A stretch of DNA of 63,694 nt, the filler included, from Globobulimina sp. (lineage: Eukaryota), in the NCBI GenBank assembly GCA_003354225.1. It is 38 parts of 38 records of this genome, joined end to end, with 100 filler letters (N's around TTAATTAATTAA, not from the genome) between each part and the next. Parts side by side here need not be neighbours in the genome. Positions count along the whole stretch, not along the records: positions 50,371 to 51,948 come from PIVH01014589.1; 37 more parts are not named here. One strand, given 5' to 3'. Below the pieces are notes generated by a model, which saw only the letters and a program-made list of their open reading frames with translations, made no database searches and was not told where the DNA came from. Positions 5,042-60,338 of the stretch are shown in pieces. The position numbers and the translations under genes are program-made. Every line of letters begins with the position of its first letter. Within the stretch, counting starts at the first letter, position 1.

Positions 5042-6472
5042 TTGTGGTCTTCTATCAGTATTTGGTGGACTATTGGCGAGCGGACGCATCCGTCGTGGAT
5101 TGATGACCAGGACTTGAGAGACGATGCCATGCCAAATTTTGAAAAATATTCCTATGCAATGTACTGGTCTGTGGTTACTTTGTTCACCACCGGTTATGGC
5201 GCCATCCATGCTACCAATATGGCGGAACAATGGTATTGCTGCTTGCTCATAATTATTGGAACGTGTTTCTTTTCCTATTTTATCGGAGCTTTAGCTGTGA
5301 TTATAACGGAGGGAGACCGCGCAAACTCATTTTATGACGAAAAGCTCGAAGAAGCGCGCGAGTTTTGTGAAAAAAAAAGATTGCCAAAAGAGTTGCGACG
5401 AGCTATTTTAACTCATATTCGATATCATTGTAATTATAACTATGTATTCGATGAAAACGATTTGATGAATTTGTTGCCACCGTATTTGAAATACGATGTG
5501 AATTTAAATATTGCGGAACAGTTTTTATCGCAATTGAAAATATTTAACAACGCAGAGTTTAAATTGGAGCCCTTTATCATTGGCGCAATTGCATTAAAAA
5601 TGAGATCTATTTCTTGCAATCAGGGTTATACATTGTATCATATTGGTGACGCTGCGAATGAATTTTATATTCAACGTACTGGTGTTTCGTCGTTGATCGA
5701 TGGAAGTAATCACAAGAAATGGCTACATCGTGGTGATGTATGTGGTGAGTATGAATCTTTTCTGCATCGCAAACGACAATACAAAGTTGTGTGTAATACT
5801 TGGTCAGAATTTTATGTTGTAAATATTAACGATATTATGCAAATTTTAAATGATTATTTTACACCAATTCAAGTGCAAACAAAATGGAGTAAGATGCAAA
5901 AATATGTTCAAAATGCTCTGGTTAAAAAAGTTAAACATTGTATCAAATTGGGAAACAACAGATATTGTGATCAACATCAACATGACAATGAGGAATATCA
6001 TAAAGAATTTGTACATTTATTTTCCAAAAATAATACTCCAGCCACTCAAACATTGACTGATGAGCATGAGTTCGAATTGAAAAAGAAAAAAGCAAGGCCG
6101 CGAACACAGAGTGAAGCCAGAAATGTATTGCTTTCATCATCAGCTTCAATGTTGTTTAGTTTTAAAAAGAATCATTCTTATGATGACAACCAGCGTCATG
6201 CCAAAATTCAACGAGAAAGAAATGTATTATCAGATTCAGAGCATAATGATGTATGTAATGAATTAAATTATAATTTAATGGCAGGATTTACTGAGCAACA
6301 AACATCAACAACGAATGTTGTCCATCGTAAGCGGAGATTTGGTGGGAAATTTAAAGTGGAGAAAAAGCATAAAAGAAGTGCAAGTCGGAACATTTCGTAT
6401 CATACAGATTTTATGGACAATTTATCTTCGGATGAAAATGCTGAGGAAGAAGACTTGCATTATATAGACTAA
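5042..6472 (+). CDS. Cyclic-nucleotide-binding-domain K+ channel (EAG/HCN-like), 5' truncated
   Basis: YWSVVTLFTTGYG pore, S6 helix, C-linker and cNMP domain (GDAANEFY..GDVCGE). Confidence 0.88.
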   Translation: MWSSISIWWTIGERTHPSWIDDQDLRDDAMPNFEKYSYAMYWSVVTLFTTGYGAIHATNMAEQWYCCLLIIIGTCFFSYFIGALAVIITEGDRANSFYDEKLEEAREFCEKKRLPKELRRAILTHIRYHCNYNYVFDENDLMNLLPPYLKYDVNLNIAEQFLSQLKIFNNAEFKLEPFIIGAIALKMRSISCNQGYTLYHIGDAANEFYIQRTGVSSLIDGSNHKKWLHRGDVCGEYESFLHRKRQYKVVCNTWSEFYVVNINDIMQILNDYFTPIQVQTKWSKMQKYVQNALVKKVKHCIKLGNNRYCDQHQHDNEEYHKEFVHLFSKNNTPATQTLTDEHEFELKKKKARPRTQSEARNVLLSSSASMLFSFKKNHSYDDNQRHAKIQRERNVLSDSEHNDVCNELNYNLMAGFTEQQTSTTNVVHRKRRFGGKFKVEKKHKRSASRNISYHTDFMDNLSSDENAEEEDLHYID

Positions 6473-31806: not shown

Positions 31807-32291
31807 NNNNNNNNNNNNNNNNNNNNNNNNNNNNNNNNNNNNNNNNNNNNTTAATTAATTAANNNNNNNNNNNNNNNNNNNNNNNNNNNNNNNNNNNNNN
31901 NNNNNNTTGTTTCATTTTGCAACAAAAGTAACCAAAAATAAAATGATATATATTTAACTCTTATTAACTGCAACGTATTATTTTCTTTCTATTTACAATT
32001 AAAATTTATCACAAAATTAAATGACTGGCCATTTGCCAAACAATCCGGCTTTAAATGTGTCCTTTGAATAATGAATCTATCAACATATACATTGTTACCA
32101 ATATAATTACAATTGCCACAACAACTGTTATCTTAAAATATTTTGATTTTTTGTTGAATAATGATGAGTTTTGATTGTCGACACCATCTATCATTAATGG
32201 TGACAAGTCACTCGTTGCGAGTCCTTGTTTCAGCGCCATTTGATTTTGCTTCCTTAAAAATGTTAATTTATCCAAAACCTTTTTCAAAGTG

Positions 32292-33485
32292 ATGTTGTCA
32301 CGCCCACTAGCCAGAGGTTCCAAAATCAATCGCAAAATCCACAATATATACAAATCGCATTCCCGCTTTTTACAACCCAAGCGATTTAAACCAATGGTGA
32401 ATCAAATCTATGAACCCGAAAACAAGCCATTACCAACACTGCAAACAATACCCAATGAATCCACCTTATCATACAGTGACGTGCATAAACTACATTACTG
32501 GGAAGATGGCCTCGTCCATGACTCGCTGCAAAGACATTGTTTAATGGCCTGGGGCGCCACCGATGCGATGTTAGCAAACGCAACGAAAGTGATCTCCTCC
32601 AGCGATGGCATGTATTTATTCGATTCGAATGGTAAAAAATATATTGATTTCTCATCGCAAGCAGTATGCACAAACTTGGGACACACCATGCCATTATCCG
32701 TCAAACAAGCAATCGACGCCCAGATAGAAGCAGTGCCATTCCTTTACGGCGGATTAGCGATCAGCGAAATCCGTGCACGTTTATGCAACTTATTGGCGGA
32801 GATATGCCCCGGAGATATCAATGCATTCCTATTTCCATCCTCTGGCTCTGAAGCAAACGAAGCCGCCATCAGAATGGCGCGAAAATATACGGGAAAGAAA
32901 AAAATAATGAGTCGCTATCGCAGTTATCACGGCGGCACATTAGGCTCATTAGCAATGACTGGCGATTGCCGCAGATTTGATGTTGAAAAAGATGTGTCTG
33001 GCTTTATCAAAATATTCGACCCATATCCAATGTATTTCAAATGGACCGACGACAACTTGAATGAAGACGAGATTGCGGAGAAAGCATTGCAAGCCTTGCA
33101 TGAACAAATTTTGTTGGAAAATCCAAAGGATATCGCTGCTATATTTATTGAAGGGATAACGGGAACAAATGGATGGTTAAAAGCGCCGGTCAAATATGTA
33201 CAGGGTCTGAGAGCATTGTGCGATGAGTATGACATATTGCTGATTTGTGACGAAGTGATGGCTGGCTTTGGTAGAACAGGCAAAATGTTTAGTTTTGAGC
33301 ATTTCGAAGGGGTGAAACCGGATATTATTACATTTGCAAAAGGCTTGACAGGTAATGTTAATTCAAATAACTGTTTCTGTGCTTTTTGTTATTTGTATAT
33401 CTGTGTTGCTGTGTAATTACAACAGGTTCCTTTGTGCCATTATCCGGCGTTGGTGTTAGTGACAAAATAATGGACTATTTCCGCA
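32292..33485 (+). CDS. Class III PLP aminotransferase with presequence-like N-terminus; intron 33352-33425
   Basis: GKKYIDFSS, SGSEANE, SYHGGT, LICDEVMAGFGRTG, PDIITFAKGLTG|SFVPLSG. Confidence 0.92.
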
Positions 33486-39264: not shown

Positions 39265-40032
39265 ATGCAGCGTGCTGTCGACATAGTGAATAACTTATTA
39301 AGTACATTTGACGATGTTAAAGATGACGATGAAATTCCCGAAGATTTAAAGAATATCTGGAGAAAATATGATTCAATTTCATTCAGAATACGTGGTTCAG
39401 CCGATGACATTGAATGGGCTGTGACCGAAAAAGTACACGGAGCTAATTTTGCTATTATCACAAACGGAAAACAATTTCTTGCTGCACGGTTTGTAATATA
39501 TTTATTTCTGCAGACTACATTTACATTAATGCATACAGTCGAACATCAATATTAAAATGGAACGATGATTTCTTTCCTGGATGGCAAAAAGTAGTGGATA
39601 ACAATAAAAAACATGCTGTAAACGCATTACACATCGCACAAGAAACAATTCATAAAAATATAAACGTTATTTGCATTTATGGCGAATTGTTTGGTGGTTT
39701 GTATCAACATAAAGATATAAAATATCGCGTACAACCAAATATTCGCCATGTTCAAAAGAATGTATATTATTCACCAGATTTACATTTTTTTGCATTTGAT
39801 ATTGTTGTTAATGATGCTAATGACGGATATATTAAATTAGAATTTGAGAAAACATTGCAAATATTGAAAACAAGTAAGTTTTTATATGCCAAACCATTAT
39901 TTATTGGGTCATTACAGAAATGTAAAAAATTCGCTACACAAAATATATCAAACTTTATCTCAACAATTCCATCAAAATTAGGTTTGCCACAACCGACAGA
40001 TGTAAACAGTGGAGAAATTATGTTGAATTTTG
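39265..40032 (+). CDS. Rnl2-family RNA ligase; intron 39489-39538; 3' end replaced by a chimeric fragment
   Basis: KYDSI, motif I TEKVHGANF, spliced ARRTSIL..FF (Ia), III YGELFGG, VQKNVYYSP, IIIa FFAFDI. Confidence 0.88.
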
Positions 40033-40201
40033 GAGTACGAATAAATGAACTTTTCTTACCAAAATATCCTTCTAAAACAGCAATTGTATTATGAAAAGAC
40101 ATTCCCATTGAAATTGACAGAAAAATAAAAAATCTAACAAAAAACCTTCCCCAAGTTATTACCGGATTCTTATATTTTTCTTTAAAGGATGTTTTATAAA
40201 A
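40020..40201 (-). CDS. Bacterial (Bacteroidota-like) family 2 glycosyltransferase fragment, chimerically joined
   Basis: FFIFLSISMGMSFHNTIAVLEGYFGKKSSFIRTPKFNI. Confidence 0.65.
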
Positions 40202-48592: not shown

Positions 48593-49113
48593 NNNNNNNN
48601 NNNNNNNNNNNNNNNNNNNNNNNNNNNNNNNNNNNNTTAATTAATTAANNNNNNNNNNNNNNNNNNNNNNNNNNNNNNNNNNNNNNNNNNNNGATAAATT
48701 ATTTATTGATTGGTTGTGTTGGAAAACACCTGGTTGTTTTCTTTTTGGTTGTTTTCTTTTTTTGCAATTAATTTGCGCAGCAAAACAACATTGTCCAAGA
48801 CCTCGGCAATGTGATATTTGTGTTGCGCAACTACCCCAACCCCAAAATTGTCAAAGAATTATTAGTCAAATTTCATCATTCGTCCATAATCAACCGGCTA
48901 TCCGAAGAAGTGAAGAAAATGGAAAAGTATGAGTCCAAATTTCAAAAAGAAGTGGAATATTTGCAAGTGGAATATGAGCGCATCAAACGGGAACAAGTGA
49001 ATGCGGCCAGACTGGCACAGCAAGAGCACCAAATGAGGAAAAACCGCCGATTGGATCAGCACAAAATGCAAAATAAATACAACGCGGAATAAAAACAAGA
49101 ACAACAATTTAGA

Positions 49114-50136
49114 TTACAATTTGTCAATACATAATGTATCCTCTTTCCTATCATTTGAATTTGTTGTGATATTTAATGATATTTTAAATTGTGTTTGATT
49201 TAATTGATTCAACTCTTTATTCATTAAAATATATTCATTATAAATCCAACTACGATCAATACACTGTCCCCTTTTATATTTATGTGTTGCTTTTATTTGT
49301 ATAGTTTTCAATGATTTATGTTTAAACAAAATATCTCCCCAAAATAAACTAAAAAATGATGATAATAAAAATGGAAATGTTTCAGTTGTATAAAATAAGA
49401 TTGTTTCTAAGTTTGTAAACAATGATAATATGACTGGTTTAAATATATTATTATTTGATACTTTATTTTTATTTTCACTTTCTACCAATGGATACATTAA
49501 TAAACCTAATATTTCTGAGGGAAAATCCTTTAACATCCACGTATTTATAATAATATTTTTTTTATTTTGGGTAAATATTTGCCATGTTTTATAAATATAT
49601 TCATCATATTTCATATCTGATATTTTATTCAATGAATAACACAATAAATGTTCCAAAAAAATCAATATCTTTCATATTCACTCTTTTTATTGAATTATTC
49701 CAACGCATATCACTCCCATTTATCATAGAATCAAAGCAAAAGAATGGTTTAAAGAATACACTGAAATTGTCTTTTGTGACAACATTAATAATGGTTTCCA
49801 CTCTGATTAGCCACATTCCGCCAAAAAATAACCGTTCAGCTTCTTCCTTAAAACAAGAAATAAAACTACAATTAAAAAATTTTAAACACCGACTGCTAGA
49901 CCAATCGCCATTATTATTCAATCTGATAACAATTCCGCGTTCGTCAGCAAATCGTATACCAATTTCTTTTTGCTTTGATGTGGAAACGGGACCACATAAA
50001 CGAATGGAAAACGTCGGTATTACCATTACACGGTTCATCCCACAATAAAATGGACCTTCTTCTGTTTCGTAACCACAATCTTCATCCCCCGCATTTCCAA
50101 AACATTCAACTGTTTCTCGCAATAATTTGGATAAAT
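49114..50136 (-). pseudogene. ART-like family catalytic region, frameshifted near 49660
   Basis: LLRETVECFG..FYCGM..GPVSTS..FFNCSFISCFKEEAERLFFGG; an extra T in a T-run shifts the frame. Confidence 0.65.
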
Positions 50137-50622
50137 GAAAATAATTTAATAAAAAGAGTGAATAAGAAAGATATTGATTTCTTGGAACATTTATTGTGTT
50201 ATTCATTAAATAAAATATCAGATATGAAATATGATGAATATATTTATAAAACATGGCAAATATTTAAACANNNNNNNNNNNNNNNNNNNNNNNNNNNNNN
50301 NNNNNNNNNNNNNNTTAATTAATTAANNNNNNNNNNNNNNNNNNNNNNNNNNNNNNNNNNNNNNNNNNNNTAATTTTTTTGTAAATATATAACACTGGTA
50401 TCTGTGTTACAAGAATACCAAGATGTCCATTGTCCAGCTTAGAACAATCTTGTCAATATTTTAAAAGCAACACCATAGTGAAAGATTCACTGTATACAAG
50501 TAACGCCAATCCGTGTAATTGTATACAAATAATAATACACTAGTTGATATTAAGAAAATTGAGTATCATCAACTTACTTACTTACTTAACAATCTGCTCT
50601 TTACTTCTCCCTACAATTCTTC

Positions 50623-51948
50623 ATGTTCAATATGGATTTGATGGACCAACATTTATTATCTCAAGCACGTTGTATTAATACTGAGTATATATTAGATGCA
50701 GTATTAGATAACATTGATGAATTAATGTTTAACCATATCCCAGCAAATACATCACCAAATCCGCTCGACTCGTCATCAGCCTCATCCTCCTCAACATCCT
50801 CAGATGAAGCCATGCCAATTAATATGAATTTCAACAATATCAATCCAATGCTTTCCATATTTACTGGCGACAACGAGGACAAAATCGAATTAAAAGATAA
50901 TATCTTTATAAATAAAGATTGTACCTATCGTTTATCGCAATATATCCTTAAAGAGAATTGGGGCAAAGATTGTATTTTATTGTACAAATATTTAGATTAT
51001 ATATTTCGTTGTCAATTATTTAATAAACAAATCTTGCAAATTAGCCATTTTAATGCACCAAAATATTTAATATTCCACAGTGGATTACAAAGACGATACG
51101 ACAATCAGTCTCTATTTGTATTATCAACACCAAATTTCATGTCCAAACCGCAAAAATGGAGAGCGCAGATTGGTAACATTTATAACTCGTTTTTATCCAA
51201 AAATGAATTATTACAAAAATTGAACCAGGCCGACATTAATATCAATCAACAATGTTTACCGCAACGAACCATATTTGCGTCGTGTTTAAGTGATTCCGTC
51301 TACGATCCAACCTATTCCATCAAGGTTTGTTTGGTTTGTATACAAATACAAATTACATAAAAACGTGTTTTTCCATCGTGTTTTTTTTGTTTATTTGCAA
51401 ACCAACCACTAATTAAAGGTGAATTGGGAAGAACGATTGAAAACAATTCAAGATCGGATATACAAAATAATGGGAAGCGACGCCTTTTTTGATGGCTGTT
51501 CCAGGAAATATTTAAAATTAACGCAATTGATACAATGTTTCGAAGATGGACTGTCCACAACGAAAATAATGAGTGCTATGAATCCATCCATTGCTGTCCC
51601 ACAAGGTATGCTCACTACATTTCATATGTTGTACGTTGAATAAATGCATTTTGATTTCCAGGCTTCGTTGATACGAAACGTAAGAAATATCGAATGGAGT
51701 TATTGTTGCCTTTATGTGTTAAATTTAATGGGAGATCATATACTTTCGCGTTGGCCATTGCACCAAATACAAAAAAAAGAAAAGAAGAATTAGCAATTTC
51801 TAATCAACCATTCTGAATTAACATAGCCAACTAAGCGCGCATTGCTATATCCCATATTTAGCGTTAATACAGATTTCACGTCGTAAGTTTCTCTTTTTTT
51901 TGTATTTGGTGCAATGGCCAACGCGTAAGTATATGATCTCCCATTAAA
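50623..51948 (+). CDS. DUF3825-like protein; introns 51325-51418 and 51606-51661; the true C-terminus is inverted on the - strand (51790-51947)
   Basis: LYKYLDYIF, FHSGL, LPQR..F, AVPQ, ELLLPL, ALA; the inverted part gives SVLTLNMGYSNARLVG..SEWL. Confidence 0.75.
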
Positions 51949-52048: not shown

Positions 52049-52212
52049 AGTTGCACACAACTTTACTGCAAGTTGGACACAACTTTACTGCAAGTTGACC
52101 ACAACTTTACTGCAAGTTGACCACAACTTTACTGCAAGTTGACCACAACTTTACTGCAAGTTGACCACAACTTTACTGCAAGTTGGACAAAACTTTACTG
52201 CAAGTTGACCAC
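52049..52212. repeat. 22-bp minisatellite, ~7.5 copies (AGTTGACCACAACTTTACTGCA)
   Basis: Adjacent near-identical units, no spacers. Confidence 0.95.
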
Positions 52213-53078
52213 AAAGAGAGATTTTATGAGATTTAAAAGGAGGAATAATTCTGCTATATACTTGTACCCTGGTCAAAAAATCCACTATTTCAATAAAAGT
52301 AGCACAATTATTTGTCCTTGTTCGTAAGAATGTTTGAAATTTTATGTCAAAATAATATTCATTCATTCATTTTATTCGTGTCCAAGAATATTACATATAA
52401 TGCACAGATATGAGCCCGAGCCGAGCCTTGAAATTTCTGAAAATAGTGCTGATTTCTGGTGAAACGAAAATAAACGCCCAGGGCGTTTATTAGAATAAAT
52501 ACCGTAAACAACCGATACTATACTCATACTGTGCTGAAAATAGCATAATTATTTATTTCTCCTTATATTCCAATTGATTCTAAATTTTTATGATTATTTA
52601 TATATTCTGGATAAAATTTTAAAACCTCTCGCTATGAGATGAGATGAGATACACTATGGGACACACTATGAGACATACACACACTATGAGATGAGACATT
52701 GTAGGTACTGTGCGCGCAGTGCATGCAAGATTTGTTATGTACATACAATAGACATAGAAAGTGGCAATTTTTGGAGAGTTCTATTTGACTCACATGAACG
52801 ACACTAAACCGTCACTGACATTTTGCCATCTCCATGCTGCAGGCGTTTTGCGCGTTCTTTTTTACTGGACAGTAAATGTGTGAGTTTTCCAATAATTTTA
52901 GTGTCAATTAAAAGTGAAAATTATCCACCAGAATATTGTTACATAAAACGAAAAAAAATCCGACAACATAAATAACTATTATGCATAACAAGTTATTAGT
53001 AAACAGTGTTTTATTCAAAACTCATACTAAATCACTCACTCTTTAACAAAACATACATTTTCGAATCAAAATCTTTAT

Positions 53079-57339: not shown

Positions 57340-57417
57340 TATAATTATTTCTTATATATTAAATAAATAAATTTAACTCAAATAAAGAATATTATTTATA
57401 TAATTATATATATATAT

Positions 57418-58107
57418 ATGAGTTTTAGCCAAAATTGGTTTAAAGAATTAAATGGTGAAAATAATTTTAATTCCTTACCAAATATACTAAATTTTAATAA
57501 AGCAATAAAATATTTAGAGATAGGTGTCTTTGAAGGAAATGCACATCTTCATATGTATTCACAATTATTTAAAAATCAAGAATCAAAATCTATTGCTATA
57601 GATCCATTTGGTGGAGGAACTGGTAATTCTACACATCCAGATGCAGAACATTTATTTAGAGCTAATTTAAGTGAATATTTAGATAAAATAACAATAATAA
57701 AGAATATATCAGATAATGTTTTACCTAACATTAACGAAAATGATTTTGATATAATTTATATTGATGGGGATCATACCGGAGATGCGGTTTATAAAGATGC
57801 TAATAATAGTTGGAATTTATTAAAAAAGGAAGGAGTAATGATTTTTGATGATTATTTATGGCATGGATTTCGTCATAGTAATGCAGGGATTTCAGCTGAA
57901 ATGGCTATTGGAGAAGTGGATCATCCAGCATTAGGTATAAATAAATTCTTAAAAGAACACAAGAATGAATATAAATTATTAGGAAAAGAACAAGGATTAA
58001 CTCATGATTGTAAAATTTTAAATTTAGATCCTGAATTAATTAAATTATATAATGATGAAACTATTCGTTTAAACTATAATTATCAAATATTAATACAAAA
58101 ATTATAA
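57418..58107 (+). CDS. Class I SAM-dependent methyltransferase (Methyltransf_24-like)
   Basis: YLEIGVFEG, IDPF, FDIIYIDGDH, GVMIFDDY. Confidence 0.88.
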   Translation: MSFSQNWFKELNGENNFNSLPNILNFNKAIKYLEIGVFEGNAHLHMYSQLFKNQESKSIAIDPFGGGTGNSTHPDAEHLFRANLSEYLDKITIIKNISDNVLPNINENDFDIIYIDGDHTGDAVYKDANNSWNLLKKEGVMIFDDYLWHGFRHSNAGISAEMAIGEVDHPALGINKFLKEHKNEYKLLGKEQGLTHDCKILNLDPELIKLYNDETIRLNYNYQILIQKL

Positions 58108-58760: not shown

Positions 58761-59660
58761 ACAACGAACGAACCAACAACGAACGAACCAACAACTTCCG
58801 TGCCAACAACATCAGCACCAACAACTTCTAAACCCACCACCTCGGAACCAAGTTCTGTACCCACTACAAATCAACCAACAACAATGCAACCAACCACAAA
58901 CGTACCAACAACATCAGCACCAACGACTTCTAAACCCACCACCTCGGAACCAAGTACTTCAGCACCAATTGCAACTACAGCTGAGCCAACCAGTTCAAAT
59001 CCAACATCAGCTCCGAACACACCACATCCAACACTGTCGATTAAAACAAGCATAGATCTAAATGAAGCTGGTGTGGATGGAGAAATAACTCCAACTTTGG
59101 ATGACCAACATGTACAAAACAATGACACACAGACAAAAACTACATATACCACATTCTTATTACTATCTGCCATTATATTGGTTGTGCTGTGTTGTTTGGT
59201 AATGCTTGGATGTATGTTAAAGATTTGTGTTTATTATTTTAAAACCAATATAAGGTCAAAAGCAAAAGCAAATGAAGAACAGATGAATGTGCATGTTGGT
59301 GAGATTGAATTGCATGCCACGAGCCCAGAGACTGTAGGTTCAGATACAAATATTGATGGAGAAAAAGCGAAATTTGAGAGAATAATATCACAGTCAAATA
59401 TTGAAATGGAACAAATGGACGGAAATGATGGAACAAATTCAACTGGAGATATATCGCAGGAATCAGAAAATGACAATGATGATATGTATGGAGATGATGC
59501 GACATCATTTGGTGAAGAGAATCATGTGACAATTGGTGGTGGAAATGTGCTTATATCAACACCTCCGTTCAATATGAATATTATTGACAATGTGGATGAT
59601 TCTGGTGATGATGATGAAATGTATAGCGATAAATTACGTAGTGTAACAAAAGGAAAATAA
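58761..59660 (+). CDS. Mucin-like single-pass membrane protein (PTT repeats, TM, acidic tail), 5' truncated
   Basis: PTTSxPTT repeats and one hydrophobic helix. Confidence 0.7.
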   Translation, partial: TTNEPTTNEPTTSVPTTSAPTTSKPTTSEPSSVPTTNQPTTMQPTTNVPTTSAPTTSKPTTSEPSTSAPIATTAEPTSSNPTSAPNTPHPTLSIKTSIDLNEAGVDGEITPTLDDQHVQNNDTQTKTTYTTFLLLSAIILVVLCCLVMLGCMLKICVYYFKTNIRSKAKANEEQMNVHVGEIELHATSPETVGSDTNIDGEKAKFERIISQSNIEMEQMDGNDGTNSTGDISQESENDNDDMYGDDATSFGEENHVTIGGGNVLISTPPFNMNIIDNVDDSGDDDEMYSDKLRSVTKGK

Positions 59661-59994
59661 AATAAAACAAATTTAATGATTTATAATATAAATATTAATA
59701 TGTATAGTTTACTTTCCCTTTTTTTTACGCGCCACAGTTTAATACCAATTGACTAGAAATCCTAGAACCAATTAAGATTGCACATTTGGCGATGTTTCAA
59801 AAAGTGAATAAAAATGAATGTCAATTTAATTAATTAGACCATTCTTTGCCATGTGTATGAATTTGACCACAGATGAACGAAGATCTACCTCATTACCAAA
59901 TCAATCTGTTTATGCCAACGTGTTTTCATCAGTTGCTTTCATTCCAACAGTTTCACCATCACTTCAGTTGCCGGATGAATAACATTATCTTGTA

Positions 59995-60338
59995 CAGTCA
60001 GGCAGTTGTAATAATTTTGTTGGTTCCAATGGTGTAAAAGGACAGAAGGCACCAACCCTTTTCATATAAAATTAAAAAAATGATTAAACTGGTTTCAAAA
60101 ATCATTGTCGTATGGATTTATGGATTTAATACTTTAAGGATTTACAACTTTTGGGTTTTAGTCCCAGTAATAGCAAAGTTGCAAATCATTTAATCTTCAA
60201 TGCGTAAAACACCATGCAAAACCGACAATGATTTTTGAAACCAGTTTAATCATTTTTTTAATTTTATATGAAAAGGGTTGGTGCCTTCTGTCCTTTTACA
60301 CCATTGGAACCAACAAAATTATTACAACGGCCTGACTG
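59995..60338. repeat. Inverted repeat with 116-bp arms (59995-60110 / 60223-60338) running off the contig end
   Basis: Reverse-complement match with one mismatch. Confidence 0.9.

Follow-up and report, generated by a model that had tools for sequence, protein, structure and literature searches.

A gene for a protein of the DUF3825 family (Pfam PF12873) was found on one short contig within a stretch of 63,694 bases of DNA from Globobulimina sp., hereafter referred to as the window. Taken as a whole, the data are probably best explained by an expressed foraminiferan DUF3825 gene with two introns, which belongs to an old family, has its 3′ end inverted by a fold-back of the contig, and encodes a product that would have an RNA-directed role. 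The window comprises 38 contigs of 1578–1580 nt each, arranged in order of length, with N44-TTAATTAATTAA-N44 linkers between them. Because separate contigs were joined in this way, only the contig carrying the gene (50371..51948, 1578 nt) provides genomic context, and the flanking stretches are unrelated contigs of a fragmented assembly. The G+C content of this contig (32.5%) is within the range of the rest of the window.

The predicted coding sequence is distributed over four pieces. Exon 1 (50623..51324, plus strand) starts with an ATG at 50623, comprises 234 codons, and ends in ..YDPTYSIK; near the N terminus it carries a conserved helix motif, YILDAVLDNIDELM, followed by a Ser/Asn-rich linker and then by the first half of DUF3825, which reads ..LYKYLDYIFRCQ..FHSGLQRR..LPQR... 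Exon 2 (51419..51605, plus strand) reads VNWEERL...NPSIAVPQ and closes with the first base of a Gly codon. It is flanked by intron 1 (51325..51418, plus strand; 94 nt, phase 0) and intron 2 (51606..51661, plus strand; 56 nt, phase 1), both of which have GT..AG ends (AG at 51417-51418 and 51660-51661, respectively) and an in-frame stop inside. The part of exon 3 ahead of the fold-back (51662..51780, plus strand) reads G-FVDTKRKKYRMELLLPLCVKFNGRSYTFALAIAPNTKKR, that is, G-FVDTKRKKYRMELLLPL..ALAIAPNTKKR, with its last codon, R, at 51778-51780. From the fold-back junction (51781..51789) onward, the plus-strand reading would be the antisense of the true 3′ end, and the last 33 codons and the stop are found on the minus strand (51790..51891; codons 51891-51793, stop 51792-51790), where they read ETYDVKSVLTLNMGYSNARLVGYVNSEWLIRNC followed by the stop. 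Joined by coordinates, the four pieces give 1110 nt, corresponding to 369 codons and one terminal stop. The predicted protein of 369 residues consists of an N-terminal region of approximately 100 residues, with the helix motif and the Ser/Asn-rich linker, followed by a complete DUF3825 domain.

The assignment to DUF3825 was obtained at both ends of the domain. Exon 1 matched PF12873 with an E-value of 9e-7 (29.2 bits, cut-off 27; profile positions 2–123 of 238), and the inverted tail matched positions 201–238 (E-value 1.1e-5, 25.6 bits). Exons 2 and 3, each searched alone, did not match DUF3825 in Pfam. When a profile of foraminiferan-type relatives was used (hereafter the clade profile), all four pieces matched in order, at 19–186, 185–250, 247–287, and 268–317, with E-values from 8e-68 to 1e-13; exons 2 and 3 matched singly at 185–250 (1.5e-16) and 247–287 (1.2e-13), respectively. 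A six-frame scan of the whole window with the clade profile found no other DUF3825 open reading frame (ORF). In an alignment with seven full-length relatives, the pieces abut at both junctions with neither gap nor overlap. Full-length relatives of the foraminiferan-type clade score 50–135 bits against PF12873, compared with 180–264 bits for bacterial-type members. Of the 18 residues that are almost invariant in the family, the predicted protein retains 17, and the exception, Ala to Gly at residue 350, is common to 5 of 31 clade rows. The conserved polar residues are E111, Y123, R247, Y339, Y351, N353, and R355 in window numbering. A sequence-only reading of this stretch had proposed a DUF3825 gene with two introns from a series of short motifs; the motifs are present where that reading had placed them, and the family assignment is borne out by the Pfam matches of exon 1 and the tail and by the four co-linear clade-profile matches.

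Splicing and transcription were evaluated using public sequencing runs, 11 of which were listed for the contig and 9 of which contained part of it, from four studies. Four runs (X1, X5, X6, and X7) were compared with the contig in the form of Logan contigs, not reads. Precise removal of intron 1, with GT..AG ends, was seen in a single X6 contig (depth 422) and a single X7 contig (depth 197.5); for intron 2, the corresponding contigs were one from X5 (depth 950.7) and one from X6 (depth 446.8). The DNA contigs of X1 (50371-51388 and 51366-51761) run across both introns. The two GT-AG introns that had been predicted from the sequence are thus cleanly skipped in the RNA-like contigs (X5, X6, and X7) and kept in the DNA contigs. 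The RNA-like cover is missing from both introns and from the upstream region: in X5, X6, and X7 it is missing in intron 1 and upstream of approximately 50572-50593, and X5 and X6 provide none upstream of the leader. An approximate 5′ untranslated leader can accordingly be placed at 50593..50622 (plus strand): RNA-like contigs of X7 start at 50572 and those of X5 at 50593, the latter with a loose end made up of adapter letters. One point that weighs against this interpretation is that the run types are guesses, with X6 and X7 given as 'RNA?' and X5 as '?', and none being RNA on record; the RNA nature of these three runs was inferred because the introns and the upstream cover are missing.

Among the coding differences in the compared contigs, 29 of 34 were synonymous, and 29 of 34 were at third codon positions. 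In exons 1–3, 24 of 29 differences were synonymous, as were all 5 of those in the inverted tail in its minus-strand reading; this excess therefore indicates that the reading frame is under purifying selection in every piece. The gene is nuclear, transcribed, and spliced, has three exons, and is under purifying selection. Two spliced introns, transcript cover, and a G+C content like that of the window mark its integration into the host genome.

The host is a foraminifer-like rhizarian protist, distinct from all of the named species in which relatives were found. Exon 1 had 18 relatives with E-values of 1e-3 or less and identities of 40–60%, and the named ones were from Bolivina argentea and Nonionella stella. 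A TMEM144 ORF on another contig of the window had its best matches in Bolivina argentea (53%) and Reticulomyxa filosa (57%, partial), and other contigs of the window encode eukaryotic families, including DHHC, TMEM144, the CHD1 helical domain, PDS5, SPRY, a match to the GW182 M-domain, and pieces of retroelements. The GW182 match and other eukaryotic families had raised the idea of a metazoan host, which was discarded in view of the foraminiferan relatives of exon 1 and the matches of the TMEM144 ORF. A contaminant bacterial gene was ruled out by the spliced introns together with the foraminiferan relatives; the protist origin suggested earlier was upheld by the same introns and by the foraminiferan relatives of exon 1 and of the TMEM144 ORF.

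The gene is one paralogue of a foraminiferan multigene family. The clade profile retrieved 67 clusters with E-values of 1e-10 or less, in which every readable organism name was foraminiferan; the named holders were Nonionella stella, Bolivina argentea, Ammonia sp. (taxid 29189), and Elphidium margaritaceum, and named foraminifera from different genera occur in each of at least three subfamilies. The closest relative was a Nonionella protein (P0002), with 59.8% identity. In gene calls of relatives on genomic contigs, 13 of 14 truncated proteins stop at profile positions 233–236, which is the end of exon 1; most of these calls end in ..I-x-V followed by unrelated letters, and 5 of 8 fragments checked start at or just before a conserved Met located ten residues into exon 3. 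Both the family and, at a minimum, intron 1 are consequently old within Foraminifera. In the window gene, the stretch at 50976-51030 was matched by many contigs of all four runs over only 50 nt, LYKYLDYIFRCQ, beyond which at least three different flanks follow; several paralogues therefore share this block at the DNA level (at least 88%) in each organism. Separately, three foraminiferan-type proteins, P0047, P0049, and P0052, some of them named (Elphidium, Nonionella, and Bolivina), are 955–1369 residues long and have long extensions with no Pfam match. Another observation concerns the N-terminal region, where the motif Y-I-L-D-A-V-L-D-N-I-D-E-L-M (50683-50730, residues 21–36) precedes the Ser/Asn-rich linker. 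It is common to 4 of the 7 full-length relatives in the alignment (Nonionella P0002, P0005, and P0010 and Bolivina P0001), is absent from bacterial DUF3825 members, and might be a docking or export signal.

Beyond Foraminifera, the family is widespread. A profile search of 1.84 billion representatives retrieved 669 proteins at an E-value of 1e-3 or less, 115 at 1e-10, and 52 at 1e-30, and 68 of the 73 matches scanned carried PF12873. In a collection with one genome per species, searched with a single protein, 570 of 600 matched stretches encode relatives. The bacterial phyla represented include Cyanobacteriota, Planctomycetota, Pseudomonadota, Bacillota, Acidobacteriota, Actinomycetota, and others. 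DUF3825 occurs in fusions with IF2_N and OST-HTH (P0158), with a cold-shock domain (L051), with CCCH zinc fingers (P0123), and with FYRN/FYRC (P0111). The association with OST-HTH domains that the sequence-only reading gave for this family is real among bacterial relatives (P0158) and is occasional, since only 1 of 23 N-terminally extended relatives scanned at an E-value of 0.05 or less carried the domain; in the window protein, a Pfam scan found no OST-HTH domain (PF12872).

The neighbourhoods of the bacterial genes were surveyed in 32 loci, in which 114 of 164 ORFs were scanned (112 neighbouring ORFs plus 2 centre genes with N-terminal extensions); L027 and part of the second neighbours were excluded. 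In 12 of the 32 loci, the nearest ORFs included a mobile-element, toxin–antitoxin, restriction–modification, or immunity family; this count has no baseline control, and we make no claim of defence islands. In one cyanobacterium, Floridaenema aerugineum, the DUF3825 gene (L001:4992-5759) contains one in-frame stop, and its ORF is split at 5219/5238, so that it may be a pseudogene or may reflect a sequencing error.

Fusions to RNA-binding modules, together with a structural model and the conserved polar residues, led us to propose an RNA-directed role. The model of the closest Nonionella relative (P0002, 11 alignment rows) was poor, with a predicted local distance difference test (pLDDT) score of 53.9, and that of a further relative (P0045, 65 rows) reached a pLDDT of 91.5 and a predicted template-modelling (pTM) score of 0.86. 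In this proposal, the C-terminal half of DUF3825 would fold like RelE/ParE and CdiA-CT (BECR-type) ribonuclease toxins, and DUF3825 would act on RNA, its role being most likely metal-independent RNA cleavage or RNA binding in RNA turnover or in conflicts between the genome and viruses. An RNA-directed role of a RelE/ParE-like core, in cleavage or binding, would thus be the most likely function, and catalysis by the DUF3825 core is a realistic possibility that falls short of being probable.

Several results weigh against this functional proposal. The modelled protein P0045 is a relative, 40.5% identical to the window protein over 309 aligned columns. Foldseek searches against PDB and BFVD returned nothing at an E-value of 1e-3 or less, and Pfam families of the RelE/ParE/YoeB type were not matched by the window pieces (E-value up to 10), by 73 relatives (up to 1e-5), or by 23 relatives (up to 0.05). 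PADLOC and NCBIfam contain no model for DUF3825, and the only matches there were to the cold-shock domain of L051. The 32 bacterial loci contained no antitoxin-like, immunity, or other recurrent neighbour, with Phage_integrase found twice and other families once each. A sequence-profile search of PDB likewise found no related structure, only three chance-level MCM5 rows (E-values 0.58–0.61); ESM Atlas yielded no usable match, and the two halves of the protein carry no trace of duplication in their sequence. Compared with RelE/ParE toxins and CdiA-CT tRNases, which have the BECR-type fold, the scores are weak, there is no relation at the sequence level, and the catalytic residues cannot be equated; furthermore, the DUF3825 domain is three times larger and has no adjacent antitoxin or immunity gene in the 32 loci.

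It is quite conceivable, even if we do not favour it, that DUF3825 is a non-catalytic scaffold that binds nucleic acids or proteins, in which case the likeness to RelE/ParE would be that of a common alpha/beta arrangement. Near-invariant polar residues (E, Y, R, Y, Y, N, and R) across bacteria and eukaryotes and the repeated fusions to RNA-binding modules argue against such a scaffold. The broadest form of the RNA-directed proposal is rather speculative, and we consider it unlikely to hold in full: DUF3825 would be a large stand-alone family of RelE/ParE-like (BECR-type) ribonucleases, present in bacteria with no cognate antitoxin and often aimed by RNA-binding fusions, which would have been captured early by foraminifera, acquired introns, and expanded into multiple subfamilies (with proteins of up to 1369 residues) for RNA turnover or for defence against viruses, transposons, or endobionts. 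If true, this would represent the domestication by eukaryotes of a toxin-type RNase fold at the scale of a family.

The inverted tail of the sequence-only reading is better read as a fold-back of the contig than as a feature of the gene. A repeat finder identified two arms of 60 nt (51724-51783 and 51889-51948), 97% complementary and 105 nt apart. The second arm (minus strand) duplicates the first (FNGRSYT[Y/F]ALAIAPNTKKR) and reaches the contig end. On the minus strand, the sequence from 51948 down to 51793 reads FNGRSYTYALAIAPNTKKRETYDVKSVLTLNMGYSNARLVGYVNSEWLIRNC and is followed by the stop at 51792-51790; on the plus strand, the reading after 51780 continues as KEELAISNQPF to a stop, giving the ending ..KKRKEELAISNQPF. 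In a 745-nt RNA-like contig of X6, exon 1 and exon 2 are followed by 64 letters (the length of 51662-51725) and by the opposite strand from 51945 to 51826, so that this transcript has the gene in co-linear order. Inverted repeats of at least 40 nt were present in 3 of the 38 window contigs, each touching the 3′ end of its contig, which suggests a recurrent feature of how the assembly was made. We therefore infer that the inversion is a contig fold-back derived from an assembly or amplification chimera and that the mRNA itself is co-linear. Short contigs of this assembly can thus end in fold-backs that invert gene ends.

Two observations count against the fold-back. The co-linear X6 contig differs from the window by approximately 8–10% (17–22 other letters per piece), and co-linearity was observed for a paralogue or relative, not for the window's own allele. 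In addition, the arms differ from each other, unlike a simple hairpin of one molecule. The alternative is that the contig represents the real genome, in which a copy truncated after ..APNTKKR is fused tail to tail with the 3′ end of a second, inverted copy, so that the plus-strand gene would be a 3′-truncated pseudogene or variant without the most conserved C-terminal motif. Arms that are 97% rather than 100% complementary, as from two copies, the likewise imperfect inverted repeats of the two other contigs (96% and 86%), and the cover of X5 and X6 on 51749-51801, the bin holding the junction, would fit such a duplication. We nevertheless regard it as improbable: the X1 DNA contigs end at 51761, 'reads seem cut' was reported at 51762-51790, and no junction-bridging contig was reported among the contigs of X1, X5, X6, and X7 compared. 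In addition, each of the three inverted repeats in the window reaches the end of its contig, which points to how contigs were built or ended; exons 1–3 are under purifying selection, and a transcript with co-linear order is present in a paralogue or close relative. As for the two other contigs, the adjoining one (48693-50270) folds back with arms at 49572-49699 and 50140-50266 (96% over 128 nt) at the contig end, the same peptide ..FLEHLLCYSLNKISDMKYDEYIYKTWQIF.. being read on both strands, and in the contig 58761-60338, the terminal stretch (59995-60338) is complementary to itself (86% over 355 aligned columns).

The origin of the family was addressed with an unrooted tree of 88 rows, namely, the window protein, 39 + 30 proteins with 230 residues or more, and 18 of 80 bacterial loci spread over phyla, which was calculated from 260 columns by a 'quick' method. 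A branch of length 0.89, with a support of 100 in the Shimodaira–Hasegawa-like approximate likelihood ratio test (SH-aLRT), splits 32 rows from 56. The 32-row side holds all 7 named foraminiferan rows and the FYRN/FYRC-fused P0111, and comprises three supported groups, each with named foraminifera; the window protein is sister to the Nonionella protein P0002 (support 97). The 56-row side holds all 18 named bacteria, a protein from Luapelamoeba (P0157), and the CCCH-fused P0123. The window protein is approximately 25–27% identical to bacterial members (26.6% to the bacterial P0117). Forcing the foraminiferan side, P0123, and P0157 into one clade was worse by 51 log-likelihood units and gave a p-value of 0.019 in the approximately unbiased (AU) test, the group having been chosen once the tree was known. 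The outcome agrees with repeated, separate exchanges and not with a single lineage of eukaryotes. The distribution in eukaryotes is patchy, with four foraminiferan genera and one amoebozoan transcriptome named, as opposed to the wide bacterial spread, under uneven sampling of eukaryotes.

From this distribution, an ancient bacterial origin of the foraminiferan family is plausible. The family would have been acquired in the distant past by an ancestor of the sampled foraminifera, with bacteria as the most likely source because DUF3825 is very widespread among them; introns would have been gained later, and duplication would have produced at least three subfamilies. Against this origin, the foraminiferan clade does not fall within the sampled bacteria, the unrooted tree indicates neither direction nor donor, and the 'quick' tree contains several long branches. 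The idea of a domesticated horizontal acquisition, put forward in the sequence-only reading, therefore stands in part: host integration and the patchy distribution agree with it, and the gene is no isolated acquisition by this protist; it is a paralogue of a foraminiferan family that forms a long-branched clade outside the sampled bacteria. An origin in the opposite direction, in which DUF3825 arose long ago in eukaryotes or foraminifera and then passed to bacteria, or else was inherited vertically from the last eukaryotic common ancestor and lost almost everywhere, would agree with a foraminiferan clade lying on one side of the deepest long branch of an unrooted tree and with eukaryote-type architectures, such as the FYRN/FYRC fusion of P0111 and the CCCH fingers of P0123. 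We consider it very unlikely given the spread over very many bacterial phyla, the few named eukaryotic holders, and the rejection of a single clade of the foraminiferan type, P0123, and the Luapelamoeba protein. A recent transfer from a bacterium into one protist is scarcely credible: although DUF3825 is overwhelmingly bacterial in the one-genome-per-species collection and its named eukaryotic holders are only Foraminifera and one amoebozoan transcriptome, the low identity to bacterial members, the lower PF12873 scores of the foraminiferan type, the long and fully supported branch, the subfamilies shared by different foraminiferan genera, and the position of intron 1 common to many relatives all speak against it.

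The window protein and bacterial PF12873 proteins, whether stand-alone or fused to OST-HTH or cold-shock domains, have the same full-length domain in the same order and share 17 of the 18 near-invariant residues, including the C-terminal L-T-L-x-M-x-Y-x-N-A-R-L ... W-L. They differ in that the window protein lies in a separate foraminiferan clade, is encoded with two spliceosomal introns, and has a foraminifer-specific N-terminal region and no OST-HTH domain. The architecture is the same as that of the paralogues in Nonionella stella, Bolivina argentea, Ammonia sp., and Elphidium margaritaceum, the nearest subfamily having 346–414 residues; the window protein is close to none of these paralogues, and other subfamilies are longer (955–1369 residues), with C-terminal extensions that lack a Pfam match. 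According to a preprint study of lateral gene transfer (LGT) in Rhizaria (10.1101/2023.01.27.525846), 69% of the prokaryote-derived genes of Reticulomyxa filosa carry introns, genes derived from LGT often duplicate, and foraminifera have high duplication rates. The window gene fits the pattern of intron-bearing, prokaryote-derived genes described there. The searchable literature does not mention DUF3825 or PF12873, and the supplements of the Rhizaria study might list the family; a paper on OST-HTH domains (PMC2848206) describes DUF88/LK-nuclease fusions, and DUF3825 is not mentioned in its accessible portion. The relatives can already be found in public proteome collections, where the PF12873 label has been precomputed for them; therefore, DUF3825 in eukaryotes is on record, though undiscussed. 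The gene is a checked example of a known rhizarian LGT pattern, in a family that the literature does not mention.

Elsewhere in the window, a tandem array with a unit of approximately 22 nt (..ACAACTTTACTGCAAGTTGACC..) was found at 52049-52215, where the next contig begins. Other contigs carry bacterial-looking families as uninterrupted ORFs, at 57367-58104, 39447-40091, and 32244-33413; the families concerned are Methyltransf_24/O-methyltransferase, RNA ligase, and class-III aminotransferase. These ORFs may be further foreign-type genes or assembly contaminants.

A domain that has been filed as bacterial and of unknown function thus has a sizeable foraminiferan lineage that is expressed, intron-bearing, and under selection. 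Usable foraminiferan genomes are few, and the present gene is an additional, clean and checked example of an old gene family of foreign type; the conserved intron positions could serve to anchor gene models in fragmented foraminiferan assemblies. For the family as a whole, the model, the conserved polar residues, and the RNA-binding fusions provide the first testable functional hypothesis for DUF3825, namely, that it would bind or cleave RNA by means of a RelE/ParE-like core, and this structural lead is the part most worth following.

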